From: Balanoglossus misakiensis
Lineage: Eukaryota; Animalia; Hemichordata
NCBI GenBank assembly: GCA_040954595.2
Contig: CM082582.2
Coordinates: 2,464,303-2,528,302, forward strand
Reading direction: 5' to 3'
DNA length: 64,000 nucleotides
A program made the translations under genes and the position numbers. The notes under the pieces were generated by a model that did not search any database, was not told the DNA's origin, and was given only the letters and a program-made list of their open reading frames with translations. Below are positions 28,800 to 58,756 of this stretch, piece by piece. The first letter of the stretch is position 1, and each line of letters opens with the position of its first letter.

Positions 28800-30059
28800 T
28801 TAAGATGTAAGATGTAGATTAGCCATGTCACCTTCAACATCATGATGATCAGCTGACACACCAAGTTTTCGGAACATCTCATGTATTTCTTCTCTGGCAG
28901 CGTAGACATCACAACTTCCTTGCTCAAAAATTTTAACCAGGTTGGAAAAATTGCTCTTACAGAATTTCTTATCTGCAGTTGGCTGTTGGCCTGCACGTTG
29001 TTGTCCTCCACAGCCCTTGGACCAAACAGATAAAGCATGTTGTGTTGGGGATTGAATCAATGCACTGTATTGCCATGAATCCACCTCCATGCGAGGGATC
29101 CCCATCAAGTCTGCCATAGCCCTGTAGTCATTGCCGGATAAACGGATGATATCCATGATATTAGAAAATATCTTGAGGGCATCCTTCAGCATCCACTTGA
29201 CACCACTTTCATATCCACTGTGTCAGAGGATGGTTGTATCATACCCAGCACAAAGAAAGTCAGTAGCTGCTTCTGAAATCACCATCTCCTCGTTGTACAC
29301 CTTCTCATTCCTCTCTTCTGCTTCCCGAATTTGCTTCAATGTATAGAATGTGACATCTTCAGGGTTGCGATGGATTTGAAGAGAATCTGAACTCAACACG
29401 TGGATGTCAAGTCTTGTACCAGGACAGCAGATCTCTAACACTTCATAGACAATATCAGTTATTGTCTCTAATAATTTGTAGCATTCGCCGATTTCCTCTT
29501 CTTTCTCTGCTCTAACACAAACATGGATAGCTCTCCAACCTTTTGTCATATACACCAAGCCTTCTGCATTGTGACACACTTTGATGCCATTTTTCCATAT
29601 ACCACTTGTCCGTCGGTTGATCTTTCGTAAATGGCGTTCTATTCGGGCGTTAAGTCGGGGGGAAAATCCTGGCGAGAAACTATCAGCATCATCTCTGCAT
29701 TGGAACCGTCTACCATAGTAAATCTTCTTAGTAGCATCCTGTTTCCACTGATTTGCAGGCATATCTGTGTCCAACAACTCAGGTATTACATACCCAGTTA
29801 CAGTATTGGATTCAGAAATGACCTCGTAGAGAAGGGCAAACTCTTTGAGAAGATTTATCAGCAAATCAATATCTGCCAGACCATGGAAAACTTCCTCAAT
29901 TTCGCTTCTCATATGTAAGGACTTCCGTGGCAAGCGGTTTGCAAACTGCTCAAATATTTCAGGAGCCAGCATGGGACCGAATATTCTAGAACATAACCAT
30001 TGGGGATCAAGAACAATGACGTCATCTGAATCTGGTAGGGTACTCTCGATTTGGAACAT
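28800..30059 (-). CDS. Last exon: COR C-terminal part plus death domain; in-frame TGA at 29223-29225
   Basis: Acceptor ttcacag|ATG TTC. ORFs 29223-30059 and 28800-29192 are in frame. Death-domain-like NDYRAMADLMGI...SPTQHALSVW. Confidence 0.8.
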
Positions 30060-30419: not shown

Positions 30420-33400
30420 GTCAAGCCTTTCACCCCCAGATCCCTCTTAAGAGAACCCAGCCTGTGATTGGAACTGCGCTGAGTACTACAGCTGGCCTTC
30501 AAGGCGCAAGACCGCGGCGTGTATGTACACTTTTCGTGTCCCGGCTGAATCCAGCAACAACATGTGAAAATGTTGAGCGCTATGCTGCGGACAAATTTGA
30601 TGTAGGTGTGAACTGTACAAAACTGAAAACAAAGTATGATATGTATGCTTCTTTTATGGTTGAATTATCTGATGTAGACATTAGAGTTGCCCTTGATCCT
30701 GTAAATTGGCCTCAGGATACTCTTGTAAGAAAATACTATAAATCTCAGACGCCATGACAAAACGCAAAAATAGTTTACGGATTGTGTCATTTAACTGTCG
30801 CTCTGTGAAATCAAGCTTTCATTCTGTGTATGAATTGTGTGAAACCCATGATATTTGTCTTTTACAAGAACACTGGCTTGCTAAGGAAGAGCTGTCAATT
30901 TTACATGACATACATCTGGATTTTATGTCATTCGGAGTATCTGCTTTTGATTCGTCTGAACTCCGTATTGGTAGACCGTACGGGGGGGGGGGGGAGGGGT
31001 TGCAATTCTTTGGCGTAGATCGCTTGGCAAACTTGCCAGTATTGTTGAGTTTGCTGATAGTCGCTTGCTTGGTTTAGTTTTAGAAAATGATACTGACAAA
31101 CTTGTTATTGTAAACTGTTATTTGCCCACCAATACTAATGATAATTTTGAAGTGTTCAGTGAGTACTTGGCGAAAATCAATTCCATTGTTTCTGATATTA
31201 ACACTGGGAATGTCTTTTTTATTGGTGACTGGATTGCTGATGTAACTACTGATACAGGCTTTGGCCATGAGTTGATGGAGCATTGTGAGCAATTTGGTTA
31301 CATCGTTTCTGATGTTGAGCTGCTAGGCAGGGATTCTGGTACGTTTACTTAGATTAGCGATGCTCATGGCAGTACTTCATGGATTGACCACTGTGTTACC
31401 ACTGAAGTTTCTCATAGCAATGTTCTTTCAATTTCGAGCCTTTGCAATGTTGTTGACTCCGACCATATTCCTGTTTCAATAGAGGTTCATTTCAACACTT
31501 CTGCTGATGAAAGCTTCAGCAGTAGTTCCTTCAAGCAATGTAATTTTCGAGTTGATTGGAAAAAATTGTCACAGCAGAATATATCCGCCTACACCCTTGT
31601 ACCAAAGCCAAGATTGATAAGATTAATTTATCCGAACAGTTATTCTGCACTAATGTGAACTGTACAGACCCTTCGCATTTACAGGCAATTGATACTTGTT
31701 ATAGTAGTATTGTGGACGCATTGAATTGTGCTGCAAAATATACCATTAGGCGTAAGTTTCACCAGAAAGTTCATGTTGTACCTGGCTGGAACGATTTTGT
31801 AAAAGAAAGTCACGACTATGCCCGTTCCATGTTTTTATTATGGGTTAATGGGGGTAAACCTAAACAAGGCCCGCTTTTTGAAACCATGAAATCTTTCAGA
31901 GCTCGTTTTAAGTATGCTTTACGTGCTTGTAAAAAGATTGAGAATCAAAATAGGGCTGACAAGATGGCTGACAATTTATGCTGCCACAAACAGAACGACT
32001 TCTGGAAGGAAGTCAGAAAGCAAACTAGCAGAAAAACGCCACTTTCTGACACTGTAGGTGGAGCGACTAAAGAGAGTGAAATTGCAATTATGTGGCACAA
32101 GCATTTCAGTGATATTTTGAATTCTGTCCAGGCTCAGACTGGTAAAAATGACATCGAGGAGAAAATGAAGTATGTTAACTTTTCTTCTGATATGTATGTT
32201 TCTGAAGACGAAGTAATTTCTGCTATACATAAGTTACCTGACGACAAGACAGCTGGCATTGACAATATTTCAGCTGAGCACCTCAAATTCTCAGACTCCT
32301 CTATTTTACCCATTTTGACTTGTTGTATTAATGCTATGATTGTTCATGGTTACCTGCCAACTGAGGCTATCAAAGTTATTTTAGTTCCAATTATTAAGGA
32401 TAAAACTAAGCTTTGTAGTGATGCCAGTAACTACCGGCCGATAGCACTAGCAACTGTTTTCTCTTAAGTTTTTGAGCATATTTTACTTTCTCGTTGTGAG
32501 GAGTTTCTTACCTCTCATTATTTACAATTTGGTTTCAAGCGAGAACATTCAACTGACCTGTGTTTATTTGCATTTAAAGAAATCATTAGCTACTACACCA
32601 GCAATGGAGGACCAGTGTTTACTTGTTTTCTGGACGCTTCAAAAGCTTTTGACAGAGTTAATCACTTTAAACTGGTTAACAAGCTCATTGACAGGAATGT
32701 TCCCTTGTATGCTGTTCGAATTTTATATTACTGGTACAGAAATCAATTGTTTACTGTGTTGTGGGGTAATGAAACCTCAGAGTTGTTTTCTGTTTCTAAC
32801 GGTGTAAGACAAGGGGGAGTACTCTCTCCCTATCTTTTTAATGTCTACATTGATGATCTTATCAATGCACTCTGTAAAGCCAAAGTTGGCTGTACCATGT
32901 GTGGTGTCAGCGCTAACACTTCAGTTTACGCTGACGACATGACTCTACTCAGTCCAAGTGTTAAGGGTCTACGCCGTCTTCTTAGAATTTGTGAAATTAA
33001 TGGCAAGGATTATGATATCATTTATAATTCTAGTAAAACTGTGTGCATGCTTTTTAATGGGAAGAATATGAGCGTTCAAAGAATTCCTTCGGTTAAACTT
33101 AATGACATCACTTTGAAGTTTGTACCTGAACACACCTATCTGGGCCATGTAATATCTTGTGATGGTTGTGATAATGAAGATATTGAACGACAGAGAAGAG
33201 CATTTTGCGTTAGAGCAAACATGCTATTGAGACATTTTCAACATTGTAGTCAAGATGTGAAGAAAGTTTTATTTTTGGCATATTGTAGTAATATTTACTG
33301 TTGCAGTTTGTGGGCATCCTTTAAAGTTAAACCGATGAAAAAATTTAAAACTATGTACAATAATGTTTGGAGAAGACTTCTCGGTCTTCCGCCATTTTGC

Positions 33401-33731
33401 AGTGCATCGGGTATGTTTGCTACAAACCATGTATTGTCACTTGGTGAAGTTTTTAGACGCAATATGTACAGTTTTAAGTGTAGACTCGAAAATTCTTCTA
33501 ATGTTTTACTTGATGCGATCTGTTCATCAGATAGAGCGACTGACAGCATATTTTTCAAACATTGGCGAAAGCAATTGTATATCATGTAATTTTGCAGAGT
33601 TTTTTTTTGTGTGTGTGTGTCTCAGTTTCAGATTTTCCAGAGTATTTTCATTAGTGTTTTTTTTCTTCTCTCTTTTGGGTATATGGACTTTTTTTAAAGT
33701 CTGAAATAAAGTATTATTATTATTATTATTA
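30420..33731 (+). mobile_element. 5'-truncated, decayed RTEX-like LINE in the last intron of the ROCO gene (antisense to it)
   Basis: ORF1 remnant 30464-30757 with ATGA overlap into ORF2 (SFNCRS, LQEHWL, GRPYGG, NYRPIAL, DASKAFD, GVRQGGVLSP, YADD) ending at 33589. Frameshift at the G-run near 30985 and stops at ~31350 and ~32465. gaaataaag followed by a (TAT)n tail at 33712-33731. 5' boundary approximate. Confidence 0.8.
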
Positions 33732-34358: not shown

Positions 34359-37300
34359 CTCCCCAAGGTAGTGAAGGTATCTCGTAGCTTTCTTTAGAAA
34401 CTCTTCATCAATGAAACGATCCAACTCTTTCACTCTTTCTATATATGTTTTCCATTTGATGACCGGGAAACTGCTCACAATCCATTTGCTTCTTCCATCA
34501 AGTATCTTAGCACACAACTTTGGTATGTATTCTTCTCTCTGTAACATTAACACAGCGACATATACCAGGTTCATGTCCAGACAGGGTAAAATTCAAAACA
34601 TTTCATAGACACTATTTGCCAATAGTAAACACAGAGCATTAATCCTTTAAGTCGCCTTGTGTACACACACACAAACAATGGGTTGCGGAGAGGTGTTAAT
34701 CCTTACACTGGCTCAGGTCTGACCAAAGCCGTCTCAAATCTGAGACGTTTCAGGACCACTTAAACCATTCACACATGATAATTTACGCCAGTATTTCATC
34801 TGAGATGTTTCAAAAACGTCTTAAACCCCGGTGCGGAAAGTCCTGGGGTTCGGATTAACGTGTGTTTGTATAGTTGTTTATTTGGGAGTGGTCGTCGTGC
34901 ATAATGACTGTGTAATTGCTCTCATGTACACAGAAAATAATTGAACACTTCACACTTCCACGCGATTGACAACTGTTTGAATGGCGTGGTTATTGTTTCC
35001 CAGGGACGCTTCTGAAAAGCACTGAAACCAGATTTCTCCCAAAATCATCGTTGTTTCATAAGCTCGTGTACTTTTTCGTCGATAACTTTATGTTGTGTGT
35101 GTTTATAAAGCCAACTACTGTCGTTGTGTGGTGTAATTCTTTATGCTTGGACCTGTTTGGGCCGATTTTCATAGAGCCAAGATCGTTGGTGTTGTCTGTT
35201 GTCAGTCAAACGGCATTAAGATTCGCCACTGATTTGGGGGGTCTTTTATACCCCGCACCGGGGTTTAACGATGACCCCCATAATACTGTTGTTTGGTGAA
35301 ATGAACATTCAGAAAAGCAACTCGAACAATACTGGCAACAGTGATATTCACCCTTTACAGACACAGCCCATTATTTAAAGTCTTGTTCTCACTAAAAGTT
35401 TGGACACCAGTGTTATGCCAGTGTTTACTCTCTGCAAACACAGGGGATTAGCCCACAGAATCTCCTTGCGTCCACACACTAAACTTTTGGCCACTGTTTT
35501 GAAATAAACACTGTCTAAATGGCCATGTTTAGCAACACGGCAACTAACAAAATTGAGGATGTCGAGGACATTACAGCAACATGTTGCAGTTTATATACCT
35601 GCATATACGTTCTAGACGACTTTGTGACAGTTTTGATAATGTTTAGAAGTAAATGAATGTTAATCCATAAATGGAAAATGCCTCGGCTTTTTGGTGATCG
35701 AGAGAACCTTCTGAAAGTTGTTAGCAGACTGAAGTGTTGCAGACCTGGCAAACTGCGAATGGTTTGAAAACCACTCGCATCCAGTGTGATTGACTTAACA
35801 ATGGAAACTGACCAAAGACAATGGGCTATACCTAATAAACATACCCAAAAGTCACTGCAGGGTGGCGCTTTTGAACGGTGTTTGTTTATCTTTGCGTTCT
35901 CACTGATTATTTGCGTCGGAGCGCTGGCCCAGCACTGGCCCTGACCCACCACCCATCGCTGTCGCAAATTAACACCGGCCCAACACCGGTGTAAAGCACT
36001 TGTTTTTTTCCGTCGGTGTCAAATCTACACCGATGTAGCACCAGTGTAAACGTGCCAGTGAGAACGCCCTTTTAGACGTTTCTGATACCCGGTAAGTCAA
36101 AAGTATACAACCTTGACTTATTTCCCACTGATAAGAGTTCAGTTATTACTATCTGATAGTTGGCTTTCTTGGACTCTATGCATTACATGAAAGTATTAAG
36201 GTGATGTAAAGCATGCCTTTGTCAAATATGGCCCTAATGAATTAACATGTTCAATCCAGTCACACATTGCAGAATATCTATAAAACCATACCTTTGCACT
36301 TCGTAGACATTCACGCAATCTGTGCATATCATTATGCTGCGAGTTGTGACAATTCAGTATGAATGTCTCATCAAGAATATTCAGGTATTTGCCAAAGGTC
36401 TTCTGAGCTGTCTGGAGTATTTCCCTCATCACCAATTCAGCTATCAAGAAAAAAGTAATGATCTCTTGATAGATTTTTATTTACAAAGTATGGACATATA
36501 CACAGAAGAGGCCACTTTGGTGCTGTTTTGTATTTTTTGAAAGCATCCGGTGAAATTCTACATCAATCACACTATCTGAATAGGTAAAATGTTGAATAGT
36601 AATGAGATCTCCTTTTGCATAGGTTCAGATGTAGTATGGGTGTCCCTTTCGAACAGAACAGCCAAGAATCAGCAAAGGTAAAGACAGCGCCCAACACTAC
36701 ATCTGGTTTTAATCAGATTGAGTGTACTCCCACACCAGGCTCCCAATTGTGTGAATACCCTCGCTCTTGTCACCTTTTATCTAAACATGTACTGAACATA
36801 CCTTCTTTCTTGTGTTCAGCTTTCAACAAATCAGCCTTGCTTCCAATCAATATCACTTTTGGTTTACTCCCACCCTCATCCATATCTTGTGATATGATTG
36901 CCTTAAGGAATGCAAGCCATGATGTCACCTATTAAAGAAAGACATGAAGAAGAATATAAAGTCATCAATCATATTATATTCAATCAGTCCCTAAATCTGG
37001 ATAAAAACAAAAAGAGATAAATGTTTCACAAATATATATACTGTGCCATTCATCTTTACTTTAATTTCATTCACAATATTGCACCACCTAATTCACTGAT
37101 GCACTGCTTAGTAATAAAAAAAATATTGTAATATATGCACTGTGCCCTTTCTGAGTTTCATCTTTACCTTTATTCCATAATTGCCCAAAATATTAATATC
37201 ACTTATCATCAGTAACAAAAAAACAACGACCCACCTCTTGTCTCTGCTGTTGCATAAGTTTTCTTGGTGTCCAAACTACATCCTGCTTGTCCTCAGCCAT

Positions 37301-38090
37301 TTTGAAGACCAATAAAACCACTGCATTCTCGACTCTTAGGAACATATTATGTGTGACATAGTATTCTGTTTGTCCTGCAAAGTCCCACACACTGAACTTG
37401 CCAATCTTGGGTATGGATAATGTGGCTACATCTATGGCGGGTGTTGGTGTGTACTGCATGTTCCCTGGTAAAGGTGCTTTCTCTTCTGACCGTCGAGTCA
37501 ATTTTGCTTGCACAAAGTTCTGCATTGTAATATATGAACATAAGTGATGATTTTCTCACAATTTAGAGGTTGTAAACTTATAAACGGCAAGCGAGAGTAT
37601 TTGATTCCGGATATAAGACCTCCCAGGTGAAACTTAGCATATTTGGTGGGAAATAATCACTGAGCGAGGCGAGGCGTTCTGTTCTATGTGTCCCATTTCG
37701 GTTATTTTTTAGTTATTCACTGTTCAGGGTTCAGGTCTTCTCGTTGAGGATATAAACCGCGACTCGGGCCAATCAGCAAGCTTGATTAATGCCAATCATA
37801 TTGTAATAATATAAAATATTTGGAGAATTGGTTGGTCAACAAAATATGTACCGTGATTTCCACTGAAATGTAGTCTTCATGAAAACTTTAATATTTGCAC
37901 AAATCCTTCACTCCTCAAAAACAGCAATAATTGGCATTCATAATCAAATATTTCTACACACCCGCTGCAATGATTCTTTGAGTGTAGTTTTGCCATTCCC
38001 ACCGTATCCAGCTAACACAATCTTTGTAGTATTACGTTTGACACCAGGTTGTCACATGAGTGCTGTGAATTCTTTTTGGCGGGAAAACAC
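34359..38090 (-). CDS. ROC GTPase and COR N-terminal exons (37962-38090, 37235-37519, 36802-36928, 36292-36440, 34359-34538)
   Basis: All exons have AG/GT boundaries and compatible phases. KIVLAGYGGNGKTTL, TPTPAIDV, WDFAGQTEYYVTH, VILIGSKAD, YLHYLGE. In-frame TGA at 38052-38054, just before the P-loop. Confidence 0.85.
35379..36070 (-). mobile_element. Second, inverted copy of the ~0.7-kb MITE at 4731-5425
   Basis: The reverse complement aligns along its length with copy 1; the spurious ORFs 4842-5027 and 35515-35967 give nearly the same peptide. Confidence 0.85.
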
Positions 38091-39079
38091 CTGTCAGAAT
38101 TTGAACAGATATGTTATGTGTTATATATATTGGGAATTTTTACACTCAATTTACATGCCTTTCAATTAAACACCATGTCTTCAAAGAAGTCACATGACAT
38201 TTTGCTTCAGAAAAGATATTGATAAAAACGCTAGTATCAAAAAATATAATTTACATTGTTAACTACACTATTATGATGTGCTTATGATGTGGAAGCTATC
38301 ATTAACACTATAGAAATAATGCATAGTTAAAGCCTCATGAGCTGCCAAATTTAACATATTTTTTCCATAACTTCTATTTGCATAAGTTTGTCATCTCTTT
38401 GTGACGCACACCTCGATAGTTGTGTACTCTTTGTGTATATTCAACATTGTTATTTTGCAAAATTTGAATTGAAGTCCGGACTAGAATTCATGAGTCAACA
38501 ATAACAATGGTTGTTACAGAGACAGGCAATATACACAAGTTGAGTACTGGGCATATTAGCATGCAGTTTGGAGAAGAACATGAAATTGCATTTTGTACAC
38601 AAAAGGAAAAAAATCTGGAAATAAAGCCAAAAGTTATAGGTAATGTCCCTTTAATGCCTTCCTAGCTGGCACAATAGAATAAGTATGTAGTTAAAAATTT
38701 ATATGACAGTCTGGTTTTATGTTTTCCATGTTATAAATATAGAAGATAAATTCAAATACACTAGTGATATGATATGTTTTCATAGCCATTTATTATCAAC
38801 ATTACGACGTACATTATGATGGTTGATCAGGTCTCTTTTGTCATCTCTGTCATACACTGAGTTTATAACTGCCTGTATTTTCATTGATGAAAACAGAACA
38901 TGTATGATTGATTATATTATACCAGTATATTGATGGTGTAAATCACGCTATTTTATTGGTCGAGACACGACACGTGACTGTGATATATTAGCCATATACC
39001 ACAGTCATATAGCATAGTCAAAGAAAATGCCTTTTTAAAATGTTTTATGCAAAGTTTCAATATACTGGCATAATATAAT

Positions 39080-39680: not shown

Positions 39681-39791
39681 CTGATATACTTTCTCATTGT
39701 CAAAATGATATTCCACAAAGGCTCTTGCAATATTGGTGCCTGCACCCCGCCCAGCCTTCCTTCCTGCCTCTTGACAAGGAGTCACTACGTT
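39681..39791 (-). CDS. Ankyrin-cap/linker exon with a GC splice donor
   Basis: ttttcag|AAC GTA GTG ACT CCT ... TAT CAG|gcaagt. The 111-bp exon is phase 0 and joins the last array exon to the ROC exon in frame. Confidence 0.6.
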
Positions 39792-40514
39792 CTGAAAATG
39801 GATCACAAATTTTCATAGATGAATACATGCATCAGATGATTGAGGCACGCACACCTATAAGTCAAATTTTAGGTCCTCCCAAACACTGAGATAATTTGCT
39901 CTTGAGTTCATAAAAATGCAACTTTGAGCTACATATTTTACACAATTTTCTTATGTGGGAGGGGGACACCCCCTCGCACACCCCTCCCCCTCCATTCTTC
40001 GCCACATATAATTTATTCGCTGGTTTGTCTAGTGTACCACGGCAGACTTCTACCCACCCTACCCCCGATGTTTACTTTGAGTGGAGTGGCAAAATTAAAA
40101 TTTGTCCTGCCTAACATTGAGTTAATTTGCTTTAGAGTTCATTCGAATGCAACCTTGAGCACCGTATTTTACAAAATTTTCTTAAATTTTCTATTGTATT
40201 GACTTGTCATTTTATTTTGTTCATATATTTTTTATTGCAACGATATACTATTATATATACTTCAATTACTTTAAGAAATTTATAATTGAGGTGTGAGGAG
40301 CCTCATTACCTTTATTGCATACAGTGTACATAGGATCAGCACGGCGAATGTTTTCAGCGGGGGGGGGGGGGGGGGGGTCATCATATTTTGGGTCTGTCAA
40401 AGGGGGGGTCATCATTTTTTGGTCCAGGGTGAAGGGGGGGGGTCGGCCTGATTTTGAAAATCGATGACCAAAACTTGCCCCCCCCCAGCCGTAAAAACAG
40501 TCCCTAACGTGTAT

Positions 40515-43500
40515 TTCAATACTTTCAGAATTAACCTGCAGAAGTCAGGTTGGTATTTACCTTGTTTTGTATGGTCACATCAGCTTTGTGTTCCAATAAC
40601 AATCTGACATGGCCTTCATCACCATCCCTTGCTGCATAATGCAAAGGAGTGTCTCCATCCTGTAAGTAATAAAGGAGGAGCATGATAATAATGTCACAAA
40701 AATTGAAATATAATGTGAAATTTCCTTAAACAAAAAAAAAAAAAATATATTTCAATACTTTCAGAATCAACCTGCAGAAGTCAGGTTGGTATTTACCTTG
40801 TTATGTATGTTAGCATCAGCTTTGTGTTCCAATAACAATCTGACAAGGCCTTCACCACCATCCCTCCTTGCTGCATCATGCGAAGGAGTGTCTCCATCCT
40901 GTAAGTAATGAAGGAGGAGCATGAGAATAATGTCACAAAAATTGAAATCTAATGTGAAATTTCCTTAAACAAACAAACAAACAAATAAATGAATAAATAA
41001 ATCCGCATTGATAGAATAAACCTGCTGAAGTCAGGTTGGTATTTACCTTGTTTTGTATGTTAGCATCAGCTTTGTGTTCCAATAACAATCTGACAAGGCC
41101 TTCACCACCATCCCTCCTTGCTGCATCATGCGAAGGAGTGTCTCCATCCTGTAAGTAATGAAGGAGGAGCATGAGAATAATGTCACAAAAATTGAAATCT
41201 AATGTGAAATTTCCTTAAACAAACAAACAAACAAACAAATAAATGAATAAATATATCCACAGTGATAGAATAAACCTGCTGAAGTCAGGTTGGTATTTAC
41301 CTTGTTTTGTATGTTAGCATCAGCTTTGTGTTCCAATAACAATCTGACAAGGCATTCACCACCAACCCTCCTTGTTGCATAATGCAAAGGAGTGTCTCCA
41401 TCCTGTAAGTAATGAAGGAGGAGCATGAGAATAATGTCACAAAAATTGAAATATTATGTGAAATTTCCATAAACAAACAAACAAACAAATAAATGAATAA
41501 ATATATCCGCATTGATAGAATAAACCTGCAGAAGTCAGGTTGGTATTTACCTTGTTTTGTATTGTCACATCAGCTTTGTGTTCCAATAACAATCTGACAA
41601 GGCCTTCACCACCAACCCTCCTTGCTGCATAATGCAAAGGAGTGTCTCCATCCTGTAAGTAATAAACGAGGAGCATGAGAATAATGTCACAAAAATTGAA
41701 ATATAATGTGAAATTTCCTTAAACAAAAAAAAAAACAAAAAAATATTTCAATACTTTCAGAATTAACCTGCAGAAGTCAGGTTGGTATTTACCTTGTTTT
41801 GTATGTTAGCATCAGCTTTGTGTTCCAATAACAATCTGACAAGGCCTTCACCACCATCCCTCCTTGCTGCATCATGCGAAGGAGTGTCTCCATCCTGTAA
41901 GTAATGAAGGAGGAGCATGAGAATAATGTCACAAAAATTGAAATCTAATGTGAAATTTCCTTAAACAAACAAACAAACAAATAAATGAATAAATATATCC
42001 GCATTGATAGAATAAACCTGCTGAAGTCAGGTTGGTATTTACCTTGTTTTGTATGTTAGCATCAGCTTTGTGTTCCAATAACAATCTGACAAGGCCTTCA
42101 CCACCATCCCTCCTTGCTGCATCATGCGAAGGAGTGTCTCCATCCTGTAAGTAATGAAGGAGGAGCATGAGAATAATGTCACAAAAGTTGAAATCTAATG
42201 TGAAATTTCCTTAAACAAACAAACATACAAATAAATGAATAAATATATCCGCATTGATAGAATAAACCTGCTGAAGTCAGGTTGGTATTTACCTTGTTTT
42301 GTATGTAAACATCAGCTTTGTGTTCCAATAACAATCTGACATCGCCTTCATCACCATCCCTTGCTGCATAATGCAAAGGAGTGTCTTCATCCTGTAAATA
42401 ATAAAGGAGGAGCATGAGAATAATGTCATAAATATTGAAATATAATGTGAAATTTCCTTAAACAAAAAAAAAACAACAAAATATTTCAATACTTTCAGAA
42501 TTAACCTGCAGAAGTCAGGTTGGTATTTACCTTGTTTTGTATGTTAGGATCAGCTTTGTGTTCCAATAACAATCTGACAAGGCCTTCACCACCATCCCTC
42601 CTTGCTGCATCATGCGAAGGAGTGTCTCCATCCTGTAAGTAATGAAGGAGGAGCATGAGAATAATGTCACAAAAATTGAAATCTAATGTGAAATTTCCTT
42701 AAACAAACAAACATACAAATAAATGAATAAATATATCCGCATTGATAGAATAAACCTGCTGAAGTCAGGTTGGTATTTACCTTGTTTTGTATGTAAACAT
42801 CAGCTTTGTGTTCCAATAACAATCTGACATCGCCTTCATCACCATCCCTTGCTGCATAATGCAAAGGAGTGTCTTCATCCTGTAAATAATAAAGGAGGAG
42901 CATGAGAATAATGTCATAAATATTGAAATATAATGTGAAATTTCCTTAAACAAAAAAAAACAACAAAATATTTCAATACTTTCAGAATTAACCTGCAGAA
43001 GTCAGGTTGGTATTTACCTTGTTTTGTATGTTAGGATCAGCTTTGTGTTCCAATAACAATCTGACAAGGCCTTCACCACCATCCCTCCTTGCTGCATCAT
43101 GCGAAGGAGTGTCTCCATCCTGTAAGTAATGAAGGAGGAGCATGAGAATAATGTCACAAAAATTGAAATCTAATGTGAAATTTCCTTAAACAAACAAACA
43201 AACAAATAAATGAATAAATATATCCGCAGTGATAGAATAAACCTGCTGAAGTCAGGTTGGTATTTACCTTGTTTTGTATGTTAGCATCAGCTTTGTGTTC
43301 CAATAACAATCTGACAAGGCATTCACCACCAACCCTCCTTGCTGCATAATGCAAAGGAGTGTCTCCATCCTGTAAGTAATGAAGGAGGAGCATGAGAATA
43401 ATGTCACAAAAATTGAAATATTATGTGAAATTTCCATAAACAAACAAACAAACAAATAAATGAATAAATATATCCGCATTGATAGAATAAACCTGCAGAA

Positions 43501-46500
43501 GTCAGGTTGGTATTTACCTTGTTTTGTATGGTCACATCAGCTTTGTGTTCCAATAACAATCTGACATGGCCTTCATCACCATCCCTTACTGCATAATGCA
43601 AAGGAGTGTCTCCATCCTGTAAGTAATGAAGGAGGAGCATGAGAATAATGTCACAAAAATTGAAATATAATGTGAAATTTCCTTAAACAAAAAAAAAACA
43701 AAAAAATATTTCAATACTTTCAGAATTAACCTATAGAAGTCAGGTTGGTATTTACCTTGTTTTGTATGTTAGTATCAGCTTTGTGTTCCAATAACAATCT
43801 GACACGGCCTTCATCACGAAACCTTGCTGCATAATGCAAAAGGGTGTCTCCATCCTGTAAGTAATGAAGGAGGAGCATGAGAATAATGTCACAAAAATTG
43901 AAATCTAATGTGAAATTTCCTTAAACAAACAAACAAATAAATGAATAAATATATCCGCATTGATAGAATTAACCTGCAGAAGTCAGGTTGGTCTTTACCT
44001 TGTTTTGTATGTTAGCATCAGCTTTGTGTTCCAATAACAATCTGACAAGGCCTTTGCCAACCCTCCTTGCTGCATAATGCAAAGGAGTGTCTCCATCCTG
44101 TAAGTAATGAAGGAGGAGCATGAGAATAATGTCACAAAAATTGAAATATTATGTGAAATTTCCATAAACAAACAAACAAACAAATAAATGAATAAATATA
44201 TCTGCATTGATAGAATAAACCTGCAGAAGTCAGGTTGGTATTTACCTTGTTTTGTATGGTCACATCAGCTTTGTGTTCCAATAACAATCTGACATGGCCT
44301 TCATCACCATCCCTTACTGCATAATGCAAAGGAGTGTCTCCATCCTGTAAGTAATAAAGGAGGAGCATGAGAATAATGTCACAAAAATTGAAATATAATG
44401 TGAAATTTCCTTAAACAAAAAAAAACAAAAAAATATTTCAATACTTTCAGAATTAACCTAAAGAAGTCAGGTTGGTATTTACCTTGTTTTGTATGTTAGC
44501 ATCAGCTTTGTGTTCCAATAACAATCTGACACGGCCTTCATCACGAAACCTTGCTGCATAATGCAAAAGGGTGTATCCATCCTGTAAGTAATGAAGGAGG
44601 AGCATGAGAATAATGTCACAAAAATTGAAATCTAATGTGAAATTTCCTTAAACAAACAAACAAATAAATGAATAAATATATCCGCATTGATAGAATTAAC
44701 CTGCAGAAGTCAGGTTGGTCTTTACCTTGTTTTGTATGTTAGCATCAGCTTTGTGTTCCAATAACAATCTGACAAGGCCTTTGCCAACCCTCCTTGCTGC
44801 ATAATGCAAAGGAGTGTCTCCATCCTGTAAGTAATGAAGGAGGAGCATGAGAATAATGTCACAAAAATTGAAATATAATGTGAAATTTCCGTAAACGAAC
44901 AAACAAACAAATAAATGAATAAATATATCCGCACTGATAGAATAAACCTGCAGCAGTCAGGTTGGTATTTACCTTGTTTTGTATGTAAACATCAGCTTTG
45001 TGTTCCAATAACAATCTGACATGGCCTTCATCACCATCCCTTGCTGCATAATGCAAAGGAGTGTCTCCATCCTGTAAGTAATAAAGGAGGAGCATGAGAA
45101 TAATGTCACAAAAATTGAAATATAATGTGAAATTTCCTTAAACAAAAAAAAAACAAAAAAATATTTCAATACTTTCAGAATTAACCTGCAGAAGTCAGGT
45201 TGGTATTTACCTTGTTTTGTATGTTAGCATCAGCTTTGTGTTCCAATAATAATCTGACAAGGCCTTCACCACCATCCCTCCTTGCTGCATCATGCGAAGG
45301 AGTGTCTCCATCCTGTAAGTAATGAAGGAGGAGCATGAGAATAATGTCACAAAAATTGAAATCTAATGTGAAATTTCCTTAAACAAACAAACAAACAAAT
45401 AAATGAATAAATATATCCGCAGTGATAGAATAAACCTGCTGAAGTCAGGTTGGTATTTACCTTGTTTTGTATGTTAGCATCAGCTTTGTGTTCCAATAAC
45501 AATCTGACAAGGCATTCACCACCAACCCTCGTTGCTGCATAATGCAAAGGAGTGTCTCCATCCTGTAAGTAATGAAGGAGGAGCATGAGAATAATGTCAC
45601 AAAAATTGAAATATTATGTGAAATTTCCATAAACAAACAAACAAACAAATAAATGAATAAATATATCCGCATTGATAGAATAAACCTGCAGAAGTCAGGT
45701 TGGTATTTACCTTGTTTTGTATGGTCACATCAGCTTTGTGTTCCAATAACAATCTGACATGGCCTTCATCACCATCCCTTACTGCATAATGCAAAGGAGT
45801 GTCTCCATCCTGTAAGTAATGAAGGAGGAGCATGAGAATAATGTCACAAAAATTGAAATATAATGTGAAATTTCCTTAAACAAAAAAAAACAAAAAAATA
45901 TTTCAATACTTTCAGAATTAACCTATAGAAGTCAGGTTGGTATTTACCTTGTTTTGTATGGTCACATCAGCTTTGTGTTCCAATAACAATCTGACACGGC
46001 CTTCATCACGAAACCTTGCTGCATAATGCAAAAGGGTGTCTCCATCCTTTAAGTAATGAAGGAGGAGCATGAGAATAATGTCACAAAAATTGAAATCTAA
46101 TGTGAAATTTCCTTAAACAAACAAACAAACAAATAAATGAATAAATATATCCGCATTGATAGAATTAACCTGCAGAAGTCAAGTTGGTATTTACCTCGTT
46201 TTGTATGGTCACATCAGCTTTGTGTTCCAATAACAATCTGACAAGGCCTTCACCACCATCCCTCCTTGCTGCATCATGCAAAGGAGTGTCTCCATCCTGT
46301 AAGTAATGAAGGAGGAGCATGAGAATAATGTTACAAAAATTGAAATCTAATGTGAAATTTCTTTAAACAAACAAACAAACAAACAAACAAACAAACAAAC
46401 AAATAAATGAATAAATATATCCGCATCAATAGAATAAACCTGCAGAAGTCAGGTTGGTATTTACCTTGTTTCGTATGTTAGCATCAGCTTTGTGTTCCAA

Positions 46501-47430
46501 TAACAATCTGACAAGGGCTTCACCATCATCCCTCCTTGCTGCATCATGCAAAGGGGTGTCTCCATCCTGTAAGTAATGAAGGAGGAGCATGAGAATAATG
46601 TCACAAAAATTGAAATCTAATGTGAAATTTTCTTAAACAAACAAACAAACAAATAAATGAATAAATATATCCGCATTGATAGAATAAACCTGCAGAAGTC
46701 AGGTTGGTATTTACCTTGTTTTGTATGGTCACATCAGCTTTGTGTTCCAATAACAATCTGACAAGGCCTTCACCACCATCCCTCCTTGCTGCATAATGCA
46801 AAGGGGTGTCTCCTGTCTGTAAGTAATGAAGGAGGAGCATGAGAATAATGTCACAAAATTGAAATGTAATGTGAAATTTCCTTAACCAAACAAACAAACA
46901 AACAAACAAATAGACAAACACACAATAAAACGAATAAATATATCCGCATTGATAGAATTAACCTGCAGAAGTCAAGTTGGTATTTACCTCGTTTTGTATG
47001 GTCACATCAGCTTTGTGTTCCAATAACAATCTGACAAGGCATTCACCACCATCCCTCCTTGCTGCATAATGCAAAGGGGTGTCTCCTGTCTGTAAGTAAT
47101 GAAGGAGGAGCATGAGAATAATGTCACAAAATTGAAATGTAATGTGAAATTTCCTTAAACAAACAAACAAACTAACAAACAAACAAACAAATAGACAAAG
47201 ACACAAACAAATGAATAAATATATCCGCATTTATAGAATTAACCTGCAGACGTCATGTTGGTATTTACCTTGTTTGGTATGGTCACATCAGCTTTGTGTT
47301 CCAATAACAATCTGACAAGGCCTTCACCACGACACCCTCTTACTGCATAATGCAAAGGGGTGTCTCCATTCTGTAAGTAATGAAGGAGGAGCATGATGAG
47401 AATGTCAAGAAAAATTAAATGTAACATGAG
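40515..47430 (-). repeat. Tandem array of 28 ~237-281-bp units, each one 99- or 102-bp phase-0 ankyrin exon plus its intron
   Basis: Exon left (plus-strand) coordinates: 40561, 40797, 41047, 41301, 41551, 41793, 42043, 42293, 42531, 42781, 43018, 43268, 43518, 43756, 43999, 44246, 44483, 44726, 44973, 45211, 45461, 45711, 45948, 46195, 46465, 46715, 46988, 47269. Consensus ttacag|DGDTPLHYAAR(R)DG.EG.VRLLLEHKAD..IQNK|gtaaa. Confidence 0.95.
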
Positions 47431-50139: not shown

Positions 50140-50660
50140 TACTTTTAGAATTTACCTGCAGAAGTCAGGTTGGTATTTACCTTGTTTTGTATGGTTACAT
50201 CAGCTTTGTGTTCCAATAACAATCTGACACGGCCTTCACCAACATCCCTCCTTGCTGCAGAGTGCAAAGGGGTGTCTCCCCACTGTAAGTAATGAAGGAG
50301 GAGCATGAGAACAATGTCACAAAAATTAAACGTAATGTGTAATTTTCCTTAAACAAAAAACATACAAACAAACAAACAAACAAAAAATGAATGAATAAAT
50401 CATTCCATACTGATAGATTAACCTGCAGAAGTCAAGTTGGTATTTACCTGGGTTTGTATGGTAACATCAGCTTTGTGTTCCAATAACAATCTGACACAGC
50501 CTTCACCACCAAACCCTGCTGCATCATTCAAAGGGGTGACTCCATCCTGTAAGTAATGAAGGAGAAGCATGGGAACAATGTCACAAAAATTGAAATGTAA
50601 TATGAGGTTTCTTTAAACAAACAAACAAACAAACAAACAAACCTACAAATAAATAAACAA
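50140..50660 (-). CDS. Two detached, more diverged units of the same ankyrin exon-intron family (exons 50181-50282 and 50448-50546)
   Basis: WGDTPLHSAARRDVGEGRVRLLLEHKADVTIQNK and DGVTPLNDAAGFGGEGCVRLLLEHKADVTIQTQ, with the same intronic flanks as the array. Confidence 0.88.
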
Positions 50661-51363: not shown

Positions 51364-51462
51364 CTCATCCTTCGCATTGACATCTGCACCATGGCTAATC
51401 AACATCCTGACAGCATCCAATTTACCTTTGAAGGACGCTGCATGCAATGCTGTGGAATCATT
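51364..51462 (-). CDS. Unique ankyrin exon
   Basis: ttccag|NDSTALHAASFKGKLDAVRMLISHGADVNAKDE|gtacgt; 99 bp, phase 0. Confidence 0.88.
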
Positions 51463-52716: not shown

Positions 52717-52815
52717 CTGTCCTGGGTATTTACCCCTTGCATTGACATCATATCCATCAGATATCAGCGACTGAATCTTTGCAACATCACCCTTCACTGC
52801 GGCATTGATTAGATT
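52717..52815 (-). CDS. N-terminal capping ankyrin exon (first visible exon of the ROCO gene)
   Basis: gttacag|NLINAAVKGDVAKIQSLISDGYDVNARGKYPGQ|gtaagt; 99 bp, phase 0. Confidence 0.85.
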
Positions 52816-53396: not shown

Positions 53397-54487
53397 AAGA
53401 AAATGAGACAAAAGCCCCCCTAGCTCCTAATTTACAAAAACTGGGACAGTTAATGCCATAATACAAATATAAATTTGTGAAACACACCACGCTGGATTGA
53501 GGTAGAAGTAAGGCTTTTAATACCCAAACAAGAAACTCGCTTAACAAAACTTAATAAATTACAGAGAAAAACACAAGTGTCAATAAATGAACAATAAAAC
53601 TAAAATACACTAGTCTAGCTATTCAAAGTAAAAAAAACGCTAATCTAAAATTGGGAGGGGGCCCCTTCAGTCAAGCGGTCGAACCTGGCCCTGTGGGTGA
53701 ATCCATCCTGACAGGCCGAAATGTGAGGGAGGTTGTGCACTTCCCGAGAGATGGGGGTCAGGATGGAATCCAAGCCGGGTCAGGATGGAATCCAAGGCCG
53801 ACCGCAGGAATGAAGGGGAGAAAGGAAAGGTGGAAGAACGGGGTGGAGGTGGGAAAGACGACGTGACCTGGCTCAAGCAGAGAACTGAAAGAATGAATGA
53901 ATGAATGGGGAAACAAAGGACGCCCAGTCTGACGCTAAGGGCCGTGTGCACAGGCCAAGCTGATTGGTCAGAAACGAAGCAGTAAAGGTCAGCACCAACG
54001 GCGCTGATTGGTCGAGGAAATGTAGGTGGGGCTAGTGAAGACCACCTCGGTGTGTTCACAAAAAGCATCTGTGACACAACACAGATTTTACTTTGTGAAA
54101 CACACCACGCTGGATTGAGGTAGAAGTAAGGCTTTTAATACCCAAACAAGAAACTCGCTTAACAAAACTTAATAAATTACAGGGAAAAACACAAGTGTCA
54201 ATAAATGAACAATAAAACTAAAATACACTAGTCTAGCTATTCAAAATAAAAAAAAACGCTAATCTAAAATTGGGAGGGGGCCCCTTCAGTCAAGCGGTCG
54301 AACCTGGCCCTGTGGGTGAATCCATCCTGACAGGCCGAAATGTGAGGGAGGTTGTGCACTTCCCGAGAGATGGGGGTCAGGATGGAATCCAAGGCCCAAA
54401 CGAAGGAAGAATGACTGAAGTTGACCCCCAAAATAAAGGGAAGTGGAATAGAGGAAATGGGGTGAGATGTTGGAAATGGTGGGAGTG

Positions 54488-54830
54488 GGATCCTGGGGGA
54501 CGGGTCGACCGTGCGAGCCCAGGTGGGAGCGTGGAATGAATGAGCCCAAGGGATCATAACATGATGCGGCTTGGGGGGGAGGGGGGTCCTGGGGGACGGG
54601 TCGACCGTGCGAGCCCAGGTGGGAGCGTGGAATGAATGAGCCCAAGGGATCATAACATGATGCGGCTTGGGGGGGAGGGGGGTCCTGGGGGACGGGTCGA
54701 CCGTGCGAGCCCAGGTGGAAACAGGTGGAACGAATGAGACAATGGAAAGATGTCGCCCAAGGGAACATAAAATGATGCGGCTTGGGTGGGTGTGGTCCTG
54801 GGGGACGGGTTGACCGTACGAGCCCAGGTG
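54488..54830. repeat. ~96-bp G-rich tandem repeat (3.5 units) inside the Ngaro 3' region
   Basis: tcctgggggacgggtcgaccgtgcgagcccaggtgg recurs at about 54491, 54587, 54683 and 54796. Confidence 0.85.
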
Positions 54831-54894
54831 GCATTGTGGTAAAACAAGAGAATGGAGGTAAACTTAACAGAAGGCAAGCGCGAGAAGAAACACT

Positions 54895-55953
54895 CTAATG
54901 ACTGGCAAGCACATGAAAAGCGTGACGCAAGGAGGTCTCGGAGGTTCTAATATACAACTGGTAACAGTCACTAGACCATCTACCTAAGTACTGAATTAGG
55001 TGATCGGGGATGCGAGACGAAGCAGCCATTGTTGCTGCCCCTATTCGGAAGGAATGTCCGGCGAATAGGTTGGCCTGAAGGCCGAGTCGTGCCAGTACAG
55101 TACGAAGCGAAGTTATGAAAGTGTGACGGTCCATAGGGAGTCTGTCCGGCAGGAGAAACAGCGGTTCGCTCGGTGAGGCCTGCATAAGTTGGCGGACGGT
55201 AACAAACCGAAGTAGCATAGAGACTGGGCAAATCTGCGTATATGTTGGGAATAGGCGCAAGTCGAATCCACGACGCAATTGGTCAGTTTTGGACATCTTG
55301 ATGTGGACAGACAAAAAGTTAATGTGGGTATCCGAAGAGTTGATGCTGACGTCGCCAAGGCAGAGATTGGAACTTGCATGGAAATGTTGGGTTGTCATGG
55401 TGAATTCACTGCAACGGAGGAATCCGAAGAATGCCAGAAGGAAGGCTGCCTCTAGCAAAAGGTCAAAGTACGCGCCAAATACACCTTGACGGAGGAGGAG
55501 ACACATACGCCTGAGGATATCCGCAGTGATTGGTAAGCGTGGTCTGGTGGTAGATCCTTGCATCCGTTGAATACCCCTGAGGACGTTTTGGAGGCGTGGC
55601 AAAGACTGGCCGGTCGGTGACAGCAAGGGGTTGTGGTGACCGTACGTGATGTAGTGATTACGGATTCCTGCCAGGTAAACCTTGATCGTACTGAATTTCA
55701 GATTGAGGTTGTCCGCACAGTGGGTAACAAAATAAACCAGCAAATCTTCAGACACGGGTGGCAGGGAAGTATGGTATGAGACGTCTGCGAAGGCGCAAAA
55801 AGACACCCAGGCACGTACCCCAGACGTATACGATCCAGTGGTTCTTCGGCTTAGGGCTGCATCTTGGAACTTGCGTACGGCAGTGTTCAGTGGAACATTA
55901 CATCTGAGGGAATCCGGCAGGGAACTGGATCCGCCGCTGGGGCTTCGTTCCAA
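54895..55953 (-). CDS. Tyrosine recombinase of the Ngaro element
   Basis: Open frame with AFFGFLRCSE, KMSKTDQ, GHSFRIGAAT and LGRWSSDCYQLY (R-K-HxxR-W-Y catalytic set). Confidence 0.92.
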   Translation of the reverse strand: MERSPSGGSSSLPDSLRCNVPLNTAVRKFQDAALSRRTTGSYTSGVRAWVSFCAFADVSYHTSLPPVSEDLLVYFVTHCADNLNLKFSTIKVYLAGIRNHYITYGHHNPLLSPTGQSLPRLQNVLRGIQRMQGSTTRPRLPITADILRRMCLLLRQGVFGAYFDLLLEAAFLLAFFGFLRCSEFTMTTQHFHASSNLCLGDVSINSSDTHINFLSVHIKMSKTDQLRRGFDLRLFPTYTQICPVSMLLRFVTVRQLMQASPSEPLFLLPDRLPMDRHTFITSLRTVLARLGLQANLFAGHSFRIGAATMAASSRIPDHLIQYLGRWSSDCYQLYIRTSETSLRHAFHVLASH

Positions 55954-57445
55954 AACCGTGGCATCTGAAAACGAGAAAGGGAGTCAGCTAGAGAGTTCAG
56001 TCTGCCTGGGATGTGCTTAGCGTGGAACATAAAGTTGTGTGTAGCTGCCAGGATGACCAATCGTCGCATCAATTTCATAATGCTGGGTGATTTCGAACGC
56101 CCTTTGTTGATGATGTGAACTGTGGCCGAATTGTCGCAGTGGAAGAGGATACGTTTTCGAGTCCATAGATGGCCCCATAACAGCGCTGCCACAACAATGG
56201 GGTACTGAGCTCTTGGAAGGCTATTGACAATGTGGGGTCGGAATCAAGTTGAAGACTTTTGCTCCACCGATCTTGGAACCATTGGCCTGCGAAATAGCCC
56301 CCGTAGCCGATACCGCTCGCGTCAGTGTAGAGATCCATGTCGGAGGCAACTATCATGTTGGGGTCAAGAAACATGGATACGCCGTTCCAGCTCTCAAGAA
56401 AGTTGTGCCACATAGCAAGGTCTAGTCTACTTTCCGCAGAAATGGAGATATGATGGTCGAGCTTGTGTGTTGACTTTGATAGCTCAATTAAACGCGAAAT
56501 GAACGTGCGGCCGGGGACCACAACGCGACACGCGAAGTTTAGATGGCCAAGTAGGCTCAGCAACTGCCTTTTTGTGCAGGACTTGGGGTTGAGGAAGGAA
56601 GTGAGCAGCTCGAGGATTCTGGCTAGCTTGTCGCGAGGTAAGCACGCCTCCATTTTGACAGTGTCGAGTATGATGCCGAGATACTCCAGGGAGGTAGTTG
56701 GGCCCACAGTTTTGTGTGGGGCGATAGGGATACCGAGACAAATAAACAGCAGAGTCAGCAAAGCCATGGTGCGATCAGCATCGAAGGACGGGGGGTCAAC
56801 GGTGAGGAAATCATCCAGAAGATGGAAAATGGTATTGATGCCGTAGACGTGGTGAGCAATCCAGGATACCGCGCAAGAAAGCGAATCAAAGATCTTCGGG
56901 CTAGAACGCGAACCGAATGGGAGACGAACGAAGAAGTAGAATTGATCATCCCACTGGATACCATACAGGTGCCATAGCGACGGGTGTATAGGTATCAGTT
57001 TGAAGGCATCTACTATGTCAGTTTTGCAGAGCCACGAGCCTTTTCCTGACTTGAGGATGGCAGAAACAGCGTCGTCAATTTTAACGTAGGAAAGGCTGAA
57101 TTCCTCTTTGTCAATGAGGTCATTGATGCTAGAGATCGCGGGGTCATTGCGCGGTGAGGAGAGGTCAACGATGAGACGCTTCTTTGTAGAATACTTCTTA
57201 TCTGCCAGACCGATTGGACTGCAACGAAAATTTGCAAATGGGGGTTGGTCGAACGGGCCAGCTAGGTACCCCTTTTTCACTTCTGTATTTATCAGTTCGG
57301 AAACCGCTTCGGGCTGAGAACGCGCTGACAATAAATTGCGGCCGAAGAAGGAAGAGGAGGGTGCATTGCGGACGCCAGTGTGAAATCCCTGTTGCAGACT
57401 CGAGATGAGGTAGTTGACAAAGGCGCGGTCGGGGTGAGAGGTCAA
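55887..57445 (-). pseudogene. Ngaro reverse transcriptase / RNase H with one frameshift
   Basis: KRLIVDLS, DIVDAFKLIP, LPFGSRSSP, HLLDDF, YTDASG. The frame changes near 56205 (ELSTP instead of ELYPIV) into WGHLW...HCDNSATV...HIPGRLNSLADSLSR. Confidence 0.9.
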
Positions 57446-57496
57446 ATGGTGGGCGAGGCTGTCGATCTCAATAGGTGTGGACGGCTTGGTGGGTAG

Positions 57497-58756
57497 TCAA
57501 TTTTGGGGTCGCTGTTTGCCCGAGCACTTGCCCTGGGCTCTGCTGTGGTCGCCGGAGAAGCAGATTGAACAGCAATGGGCGAAGGAACAGTTATCTCTCT
57601 TGCAACCCGTGGGCGAATTGAAATTATTACAGAGTTCTTTACCCTGGTGGAAAACGCGGGGACGTCCTTTCCAGTCCTGTGATGACGATTGCGATGGTGC
57701 GGAGGAGGATTGCGATGGTGCGGAGTTAACCGATTTCTTGCTGCCCGGAGCAAGTTGTGGACAAATCTCAGTAGCGTGGGCTACACTTCCGCAAAGGTTG
57801 CACAGGGCAGCCCGCAGCCCGGAGAAAATAGAACAATATAAGGTGGTGTCCCGGCGTGACCAATCCACCTTAATGTTGTGGTTTAACAGCAAAGCCGCGG
57901 CCCTAGCGGAAAATGCACGGTGGTACTCATAAAAGGCCATGCCACTAAAACGACGCGACATGTCGACTATGTCCCTCTGGTATGAGTCCAATTCCTCGCG
58001 GCGATTCGGATAAACCTCGCACATAACGTTCTTGTAAACCGAGAAGGCGAGAATGAATTCTTGTATTGTGAGCGAGCGAGCAACCCGTGTATCATGCAAA
58101 GGTCGCAGCGACAGGGCCTCGTCGCCGATTACAATGTGACGCTGGCTATCGTTGAAACTGTACCCCGGAATGAGGAGGCATGCCAAATTGACATCCTTAC
58201 CTGCGAGAATATCTCGACGAAGGGAGGGTGATACCAGTTCGACGTGCGGTAAATTTTCCGAGGAAATACCGCGAGAACGGAGCAGGTCATTGGTAGCGCC
58301 AGAATGGTTGTTGTTAGTGGCCGAGCCCCGGCCGCCATCTTGGAAAGCGTTGGTGTTTTGCTCCATAGGCGGTTGTGACGTCACCGGCGATGACGTCATG
58401 GGTGCGTTGTTGCTGAACCCTGGATTTTGCTGTTCCAAGACTAAGCGCGTCAGGTTGTTGACAGAGTCTTGCAGAGATGTAAACATGGAAGTAGTTACAT
58501 AATTGTTTTGCTGCTCTTGCCTACTGCCTTGGGGGACGTCGGAAAATTCAGGACTGGAACGACGATCGGCTGGAACTTCGTTGTTGTAGCCCTGAACAGA
58601 AGTCGCACAGTTCTCAGTGACCAGTCTATTCAGATCGGTGGTACTCGGCGACGCAGACACGGCATCCGGAGTCGCTGAAGAACGGGATTGAGCTCGGGTA
58701 GTCGGTCTGACGTACGGCTGAGCTGTTGGGACTCGTGATCGACGTCTGGCGGGCAT
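57497..58756 (-). CDS. Ngaro gag-like ORF1 with C-terminal zinc fingers
   Basis: Intact 419-aa ORF; FYEYHRAFS, CNLCGSVAHATEIC, CNNFNSPTGCKRDNCSFAHCCSICFSGDH. Confidence 0.88.
   Translation of the reverse strand: MPARRRSRVPTAQPYVRPTTRAQSRSSATPDAVSASPSTTDLNRLVTENCATSVQGYNNEVPADRRSSPEFSDVPQGSRQEQQNNYVTTSMFTSLQDSVNNLTRLVLEQQNPGFSNNAPMTSSPVTSQPPMEQNTNAFQDGGRGSATNNNHSGATNDLLRSRGISSENLPHVELVSPSLRRDILAGKDVNLACLLIPGYSFNDSQRHIVIGDEALSLRPLHDTRVARSLTIQEFILAFSVYKNVMCEVYPNRREELDSYQRDIVDMSRRFSGMAFYEYHRAFSARAAALLLNHNIKVDWSRRDTTLYCSIFSGLRAALCNLCGSVAHATEICPQLAPGSKKSVNSAPSQSSSAPSQSSSQDWKGRPRVFHQGKELCNNFNSPTGCKRDNCSFAHCCSICFSGDHSRAQGKCSGKQRPQN

Follow-up and report, generated by a model that had tools for sequence, protein, structure and literature searches.

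In brown algae, LRR-ROCO genes join a ROCO GTPase to repeats that are encoded one to an exon of constant phase, recombine with one another and carry signs of diversifying selection, as far as the available parts of the two sources describe them (PMC3341825, PMC11378527); the same material describes these exons as alternatively spliced (PMC11378527). Fungal NLRs with ANK, TPR or WD40 repeats of high internal conservation carry near-identical repeats under concerted evolution with few variable positions (available part of PMC4986451). In fungal NLR families, pseudogenes can keep nearly intact repeats, and for some of the pseudogenised genes other strains have an intact version (available part of PMC13449251). 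Here we analyse a 64,000-nt stretch of the genome of the acorn worm Balanoglossus misakiensis (contig CM082582.2; hereafter, the window), which holds a ROCO gene resembling the brown-algal genes in its GTPase, its one-repeat exons of the same phase, the recombination among its repeats and, less securely, its signs of diversifying selection. It resembles the fungal genes in its near-identical repeats with few variable positions and in being a probable pseudogene whose repeats are nearly intact. A literature search, with subscription papers mostly outside it, found no description of such a family in hemichordates or of ankyrin exon cassettes in animals.

The window contains 30 ankyrin cassette exons, 28 within 40561-47370 and 2 outside, all on the minus strand. 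A gene model from 52815 to 28803 joins them with flanking exons into 40 exons and 1,839 codons, in phase throughout and free of frameshifts, each border being canonical or GC-AG (Table 1). Its domain order is ankyrin-Roc-COR-death, and its Roc P-loop and DxAGQ motifs align to those of homologues. The C-terminal six-helix domain, in a predicted model with a pLDDT of 69, matched the MyD88 death domain with a Z of 9.8 and an rmsd of 2.9 over 96 aligned residues; a Foldseek search with this domain gave no match at E 0.001, and death domains were common among its top rows. No first exon was found upstream of 52815 by a simple pattern search, and the homologues P0002 and P0007 start ~10 residues before the part that matches exon 52815-52717. 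The window gene is a broken copy of a ROCO gene, with no open frame through Roc-COR. Judging from its two in-frame TGA codons, one of them ahead of the GTPase, this copy probably makes no full receptor. Since there are just two lesions, no frameshift and splice sites that are all intact, the loss of function was likely recent relative to the mean DNA difference of 8.5% between units and likely came after most of the variation had arisen. In the Roc switch region (37430-37445), the window gene has Ala where four aligned homologues carry Gly.

Table 1. Exons and in-frame stops of the ankyrin-ROCO gene in the window
Feature	Coordinates	Strand	Basis or remark
N-cap ankyrin exon, 99 nt	52717..52815	-	tblastn to P0002 residues 10-40, 58%; AG/GT borders
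Divergent single ankyrin exon, 99 nt	51364..51462	-	PF00023 E 3e-10; borders
Cassette exon 30	50448..50546	-	array's first exon in transcript order
Cassette exon 29	50181..50282	-	2,810-nt intron after exon 29
Tandem array of 28 one-repeat ankyrin exons	40561..47370	-	exon and border scan
C-cap exon, GC donor at 39681	39681..39791	-	tblastn to P0005 and P0007
Linker exon	38813..38872	-	tblastn to homologues, gene model
First Roc exon with P-loop, holds first premature stop	37962..38090	-	homologue alignment
In-frame TGA before P-loop, codon 1143 of model	38052..38054	-	a residue in 10/10 homologues covering the column
Roc exon with DxAGQ motif	37235..37519	-	PF08477 E 5e-8, 33.5 bits vs curated cutoff 27
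Roc exon 3	36802..36928	-	homologue alignment, gene model
Roc exon 4	36292..36440	-	homologue alignment, gene model
First COR exon	34359..34538	-	homologue alignment, gene model
Last exon: COR and death domain, natural TAA end	28800..30059	-	PF25497 E 6e-5, below curated cutoff on exon alone
Second in-frame TGA, just before death domain	29223..29225	-	Arg in 13/16 homologues covering the column

Mobile elements and other repeats surround and enter the gene. A DIRS-like retrotransposon with a tyrosine recombinase (PF00589) and a reverse transcriptase lies on the minus strand just upstream of the first modelled exon (53454-59068), with split terminal repeats (53454-53774 matching 54072-54393, and 53854-54091 matching 58831-59068); it may interrupt the 5' end of the ROCO gene. 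The intron between the two COR exons holds a degenerate LINE on the plus strand (30742-33589; RVT_1), and a 698-nt element occurs twice in opposite orientation at 94.6% identity (4733-5423 and 35379-36070), one copy being in an intron of the ROCO gene. Elsewhere in the window lie a LINE (16486-21383) whose ORF1 has a zinc knuckle and whose endonuclease-RT ORF2 is broken by a stop ending at 20390, two related 21-nt minisatellite arrays in opposite orientation (15705-16158 and 23322-23768) and fragmented transposon-like ORFs on the plus strand (7808-11316), one of which matches DUF7869 (PF25273).

All 17 matches to the COR region were hemichordate proteins (40-60% identity), 15 of them from Ptychodera flava. 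These "DAPK1-like" proteins (P0001-P0017; Ptychodera flava, Glandiceps talaboti and Saccoglossus kowalevskii) share with the window gene its caps, linker, Roc, COR and C-terminal domain, and the window protein groups with seven Ptychodera proteins (support 100/99). Compared as proteins, they differ from it in repeat number, which varies among them (~17 array repeats in P0007, 15 in P0015, ~5 in P0001) and reaches 30 in the window gene, and in lacking its 34-residue loop-insertion units and two stops. As in ROCO proteins generally, a Roc domain (PF08477) is followed directly by COR, the latter recognised by the identity to these 17 COR-annotated proteins. DAPK1 has the ankyrin-Roc-COR-death order in common with the window gene; its N-terminal kinase and calmodulin-binding domain are not features of the homologue family, in which none of the 17 proteins has a kinase Pfam domain, and because the family is without a kinase the window gene is not DAPK1. 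The family is a kinase-less ankyrin-Roc-COR-death type that has expanded in hemichordates.

Each of the 30 cassette exons is phase 0 and 99 or 102 nt long, the longer ones encoding 34-residue units with a loop insertion, and each has intact AG/GT borders and neither a stop nor a frameshift. The units are distinct in 23 cases at the DNA level and 22 at the protein level (codon alignment), with mean identities of 91.5% and 81.5%, respectively. Introns within the 28-exon array are 137-179 nt long, near-identical and of two types (intron pi 0.064). Using 4 of the 30 exons as blastn queries, we found no further cassette copies, inverted or intronic, in the window, apart from one 22-nt match at chance level. 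We numbered residues in the 33-residue library register (PMC4308713, available part), set by alignment. As the initial annotation had noted, VRLLLEHKAD is the same in all 30 units, and a single silent change lies in exon 45211-45312. The residue variants it listed are all present, but W at residue 1, S after the His and GV occur only in the two cassette exons outside 40561-47370, the span it gave. The loop indel it described as one codon is real but consists of two separate 3-nt indels, both inside the triplet-like loop. Its list of variable sites was incomplete: G4E (2/30 units) corresponds to its "ED" variant, and it omitted the core substitutions L8S (7/30), P7L (3/30) and H9N (1/30) as well as changes at positions 12, 33, 1 and 2. 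Altogether, the GTPLH core is altered in 13 of 30 units.

The units are mosaics, with 205 of 1,081 pairs of informative sites incompatible. Compatibility is higher between neighbouring sites than after shuffling (p 0.002-0.011), and at least 10 breakpoints are required. Over the compared columns, unit pairs 8/10, 9/11 and 13/22 do not differ, distance between units dips at a lag of three and the tandem array has a weak period of three units. Identical loop types recur joined to different hairpin lead-ins. This pattern fits unequal crossover and conversion that would preserve the reading frame. Three sequencing runs were listed, all of one sample and one study. We rejected one candidate sign of extra arrays, sequencing-run contigs aligned to a stretch of the C-cap exon and one unit, in which some loop variants make up 42-66% of summed depth vs 5 of 30 exons, because the variant amounts to 4 of 11 among units that share the reference gap and mapping favours those units. 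Over the C-cap stretch 39688-39871, one contig of run X1 has a depth of 638 and 4 differing letters, most other listed X1 contigs having depths of 19-119; depth being no copy number, this contig gives a hint of many near-identical paralogues.

The initial annotation held that variation among the cassettes is mostly amino-acid changing, with few silent differences, and read it as diversifying selection on ligand specificity. We counted each distinct allele once, a count that recombination does not inflate, and obtained 41 nonsynonymous changes in 77.2 sites and 10 synonymous changes in 24.8 sites over the whole of the 30 exons. Both descriptions are right as counts (41 and 10 of 51), but the nonsynonymous share of 80% is at chance level given that 76% of sites are nonsynonymous, and the silent changes show no deficit with 24% of sites synonymous (binomial p 0.07-0.39 across settings). 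The nonsynonymous density of 0.52-0.56 is intron-like, the flanking introns having 0.48 (46 alleles in 96 sites), and intron bases near splice sites are possibly constrained, which would inflate ratios of exon to neutral change. Taken whole, the cassette exon looks neutral.

Along the repeat, however, variation is heterogeneous. The helix-2 block (positions 20-29) has 0 amino-acid changes in 22.2 sites (p=1e-4); it also has little silent change (1 in 7.8 sites) and is invariant at five positions that other ankyrins tolerate changing. Because of these last two features, conversion may partly keep the block identical. Relative to a neutral reference that pools introns and silent sites, the 41 changes in the 54.3 sites outside helix 2 amount to a 1.63-fold density over 30 exons (p=0.02), 1.58-fold in exons 1-28 and 2.06-fold in exons 1-25 (p=0.009). 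Positions 13-19 stand at 1.9-2.8x neutral in all three exon sets (30, 28 and 25; p 0.005-0.03) and positions 15-19 at about 2x over 30 exons (p 0.02-0.03), but both the 13-19 zone and the helix-2 block were chosen post hoc, from the data. The library-randomised positions 2, 3, 5, 10, 13 and 33, a set fixed beforehand from the available part of the library paper (PMC4308713), have 14 changes in 14.6 sites over 30 exons, about 2.1x neutral (p=0.02). That substitutions at variable codons are denser than in the flanking introns, which the initial annotation had taken as decisive, was seen over 30 exons but lost significance in exons 1-28 (1.65x, p 0.08-0.18) and in exons 1-25 (1.41x, p=0.41), and the five outer exons supply much of the excess. 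After correction for base composition, with intron rates taken as known, the excess at 15-19 drops to p=0.085 and that of the randomised set stays at p=0.005. CpG hypermutation was rejected as the cause of the hot zone, the consensus unit being without CpG. A test on the initial annotation's own site list gave 2.0-2.8x (p 0.0005-0.009) but is circular, because those sites were picked for being variable.

We placed the variable sites by register on published positions. Of the 41 changes, 18 fall at library positions, in the inserted codon or at position 14, which we take to be a site randomised in DARPins. The other 23 lie off the randomised face: 11 at positions 15-19, 6 in the G-TPLH-A framework and 6 at 30, 31 and 1. 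The placement of the variation on the ankyrin binding face therefore stands for fewer than half of the changes, and, by register, residues away from the concave surface vary as well. With helix 2 left out, the randomised positions (the set without 10) show no excess over the remainder of the exon (p=0.18). As in the DARPin and ANK-N5C libraries (available part of PMC4308713), the 33-residue register fits and positions 2, 3, 5, 10, 13 and 33 vary; unlike in those libraries, the densest zone here is 13-19, and the framework positions 4, 7, 8, 9, 12, 30 and 31 vary. The same available text treats position 14 as framework.

Other ankyrin repeats bear on this distribution. Ser at position 8 occurs in 0 of 336 control repeats vs 7 of 30 cassette units, and His, Arg or Asp at position 19 in at most 0.6% vs 11 of 30 units; 118 of 119 new matches were used, and the control search pattern fixed positions 20, 23, 24, 27, 28 and 30, so that frequencies there are unusable. 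These residues, rare in natural repeats at core positions, look like decay. In the Ptychodera protein P0007 (19 repeats, 2 of them non-array), variability is highest at 10, 13 and 14 (2.8 bits) and at 15-19 (2.5 bits) vs 0.5 at GTPLH, and its profile correlates with that of the cassettes (rho 0.40, p=0.02). The LLExKA motif is kept in the Ptychodera paralogues too. In the Glandiceps talaboti protein P0015, 15 ankyrin repeats of high similarity fall into two types that roughly alternate, with positions 5, 10, 13 and 14 variable and 15-19 conserved; this is a second hemichordate ROCO array, nearer to the DARPin pattern than that of the window. From the sequence comparisons, we infer a variable rim that is shifted toward the inter-helix loop and wider than the DARPin face.

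We evaluated these patterns with forward simulations that include conversion (six settings, 150 runs each). Simulated diversity lay above that of the data (intron pi 0.08-0.10 vs 0.064), and the simulations apply to the 30-exon set, being too lenient for 25. Fully neutral simulations reached the observed whole-exon ratio in 19-31 of 150 runs and yielded an unchanged 10-codon run in 2, 0 and 5 of 150; with constraint on helix 2 only, the whole-exon ratio was reached in 0, 5 and 3 of 150. The observed density at the randomised set with position 14 and the inserted codon was reached by neutral simulations with recombination in 0-1 of 150 runs per setting. Codon models gave likelihood ratios of M2a vs M1a of 8.4 (30 exons), 6.2 (28) and 3.3 (25), yet this result is not robust to recombination among units. 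Of the simulated sets without positive selection, 34 and 31 of 150 were fitted, and a ratio as high as 8.4 came up in 1 and 7 of these, respectively, so the codon-model test adds little.

Our favoured explanation, to which we give an even chance, is past diversifying selection of moderate strength on a predicted ligand-binding rim, running from helix 1 into the inter-helix loop, in a recombined array of a stop-carrying, kinase-less ankyrin-Roc-COR-death gene. The roughly twofold protein-changing excess around the predicted rim likely, though not securely, reflects selection for novel specificities of binding; the signal is modest and sensitive to the set of exons included. The reading of diversifying selection on ligand specificity is supported in part: it gains from the heterogeneity along the repeat and the approximately twofold density at randomised positions, and loses from a whole exon that behaves as if neutral and from stops that allow relaxed constraint. 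Because the host gene carries two premature stops, which the initial annotation had not noticed, relaxed constraint combined with conversion is a live rival, although we think it somewhat unlikely: here the cassettes of a pseudogene drift, helix 2 is identical as the seed of crossover or conversion, and the loop owes part of its variability to slippage in a G-rich, triplet-like stretch. The intron-like density of the whole exon, a ratio reached in 19-31 of 150 fully neutral simulations, speaks for such drift, as do the core-breaking substitutions in 13 of 30 units, the helix-2 block low in silent change and fixed where other ankyrins vary, and the position of both indels in the triplet-like loop. 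The COR-death region also deviates at 14 of 110 otherwise invariant columns, but P0006 does so at 16 of 112, and the figure may just reflect that the set holds no close relative. However, an empty helix-2 block rarely arose in neutral runs with conversion (0-5 of 150), and so did the density seen at randomised positions (0-1 of 150). Stops and frameshifts are absent from the 30 exons, their splice dinucleotides are all preserved, and the persistence of LLExKA in Ptychodera paralogues likewise argues against mere drift.

The stops themselves admit other readings. They could have come from errors in the assembly, or one haplotype could carry a null allele; the gene would then normally encode an intact receptor of 1,839 codons on which diversifying selection continues. 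The 40 modelled exons, which keep phase without a frameshift and have canonical or GC-AG borders, would suit this, as would the single-base nature of both TGA codons, the second at the homologues' Arg column, and the fungal NLR pseudogenes that are sometimes intact in other strains (PMC13449251, available part). We nevertheless consider it improbable, as errors would have to have arisen twice independently, both yielding TGA, and two stops in a null allele imply some time free of constraint. Still less probable, in our view, is that an ankyrin-only protein of ~1,140 codons, a decoy or antagonist, functions with its end at the first stop, or that the exons are spliced in varying subsets. The ankyrin part is indeed lesion-free, with both stops downstream and all cassettes in phase 0, and brown-algal LRR-ROCO exons are alternatively spliced (PMC11378527, available part). 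Against variable splicing, the introns are near-identical and no signals of mutually exclusive splicing were seen. A premature stop with introns downstream is a classic substrate of nonsense-mediated decay, and here a donor follows 90 nt after the first stop, with five further introns beyond it.

Under past selection on the rim, unequal crossover and gene conversion would copy whole exon-plus-intron units with the frame kept and, with the identical helix-2 block as the joint, would bring the helix-1/loop half together with different hairpin lead-ins. In family members that are intact, the array would act as the binder of a variable ligand, Roc-COR as a switch between states and the death domain as the recruiter of a signalling partner. 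If selection holds in intact copies, a deuterostome would be using a GTPase switch of the DAPK/LRRK2 type in a variable receptor whose diversity comes from exon-sized ankyrin cassettes. Invertebrate immunology would then gain a new receptor family open to testing, along with a natural counterpart of DARPin libraries in which the hot zone differs. If selection fails, the gene is in decay and its tandem array is young. A wider proposal, which we regard as doubtful, is that acorn worms have expanded ankyrin-ROCO-death immune sensors, with one-repeat cassettes recombining, half-repeats being reassorted across a fixed helix-2 crossover block, selection on the rim of helix 1 and the inter-helix loop, and stop-broken copies acting as reservoirs for intact paralogues.

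The differences from the described systems are as distinct as the likenesses. The brown-algal repeats are 72-nt, phase-2 LRR exons (available parts of PMC3341825 and PMC11378527), whereas those in the window are phase-0 ankyrin exons in an animal gene with a C-terminal death domain, and the search with 4 of the 30 exons brought up no spare copies, inverted or intronic, in the window. Fungal NLRs, in the available parts of their sources, use a NACHT or NB-ARC switch where the window gene has Roc-COR, and the window repeats are separate exons. Variable sites of the fungal repeats lie almost all on the concave face, while 23 of the 41 changes here are outside the library-randomised positions, and the window units, at 81.5% mean protein identity, fall below the 85% mark used there (PMC4986451, available part). 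Because either the repeat type or the switch differs, the window gene belongs to neither the brown-algal ROCO nor the fungal NLR class. If the wider proposal is true, the acorn worm genes would show that a deuterostome, too, diversifies receptors as brown algae do with ROCO genes and fungi with NLRs, here on the basis of the DAPK/LRRK2 switch.
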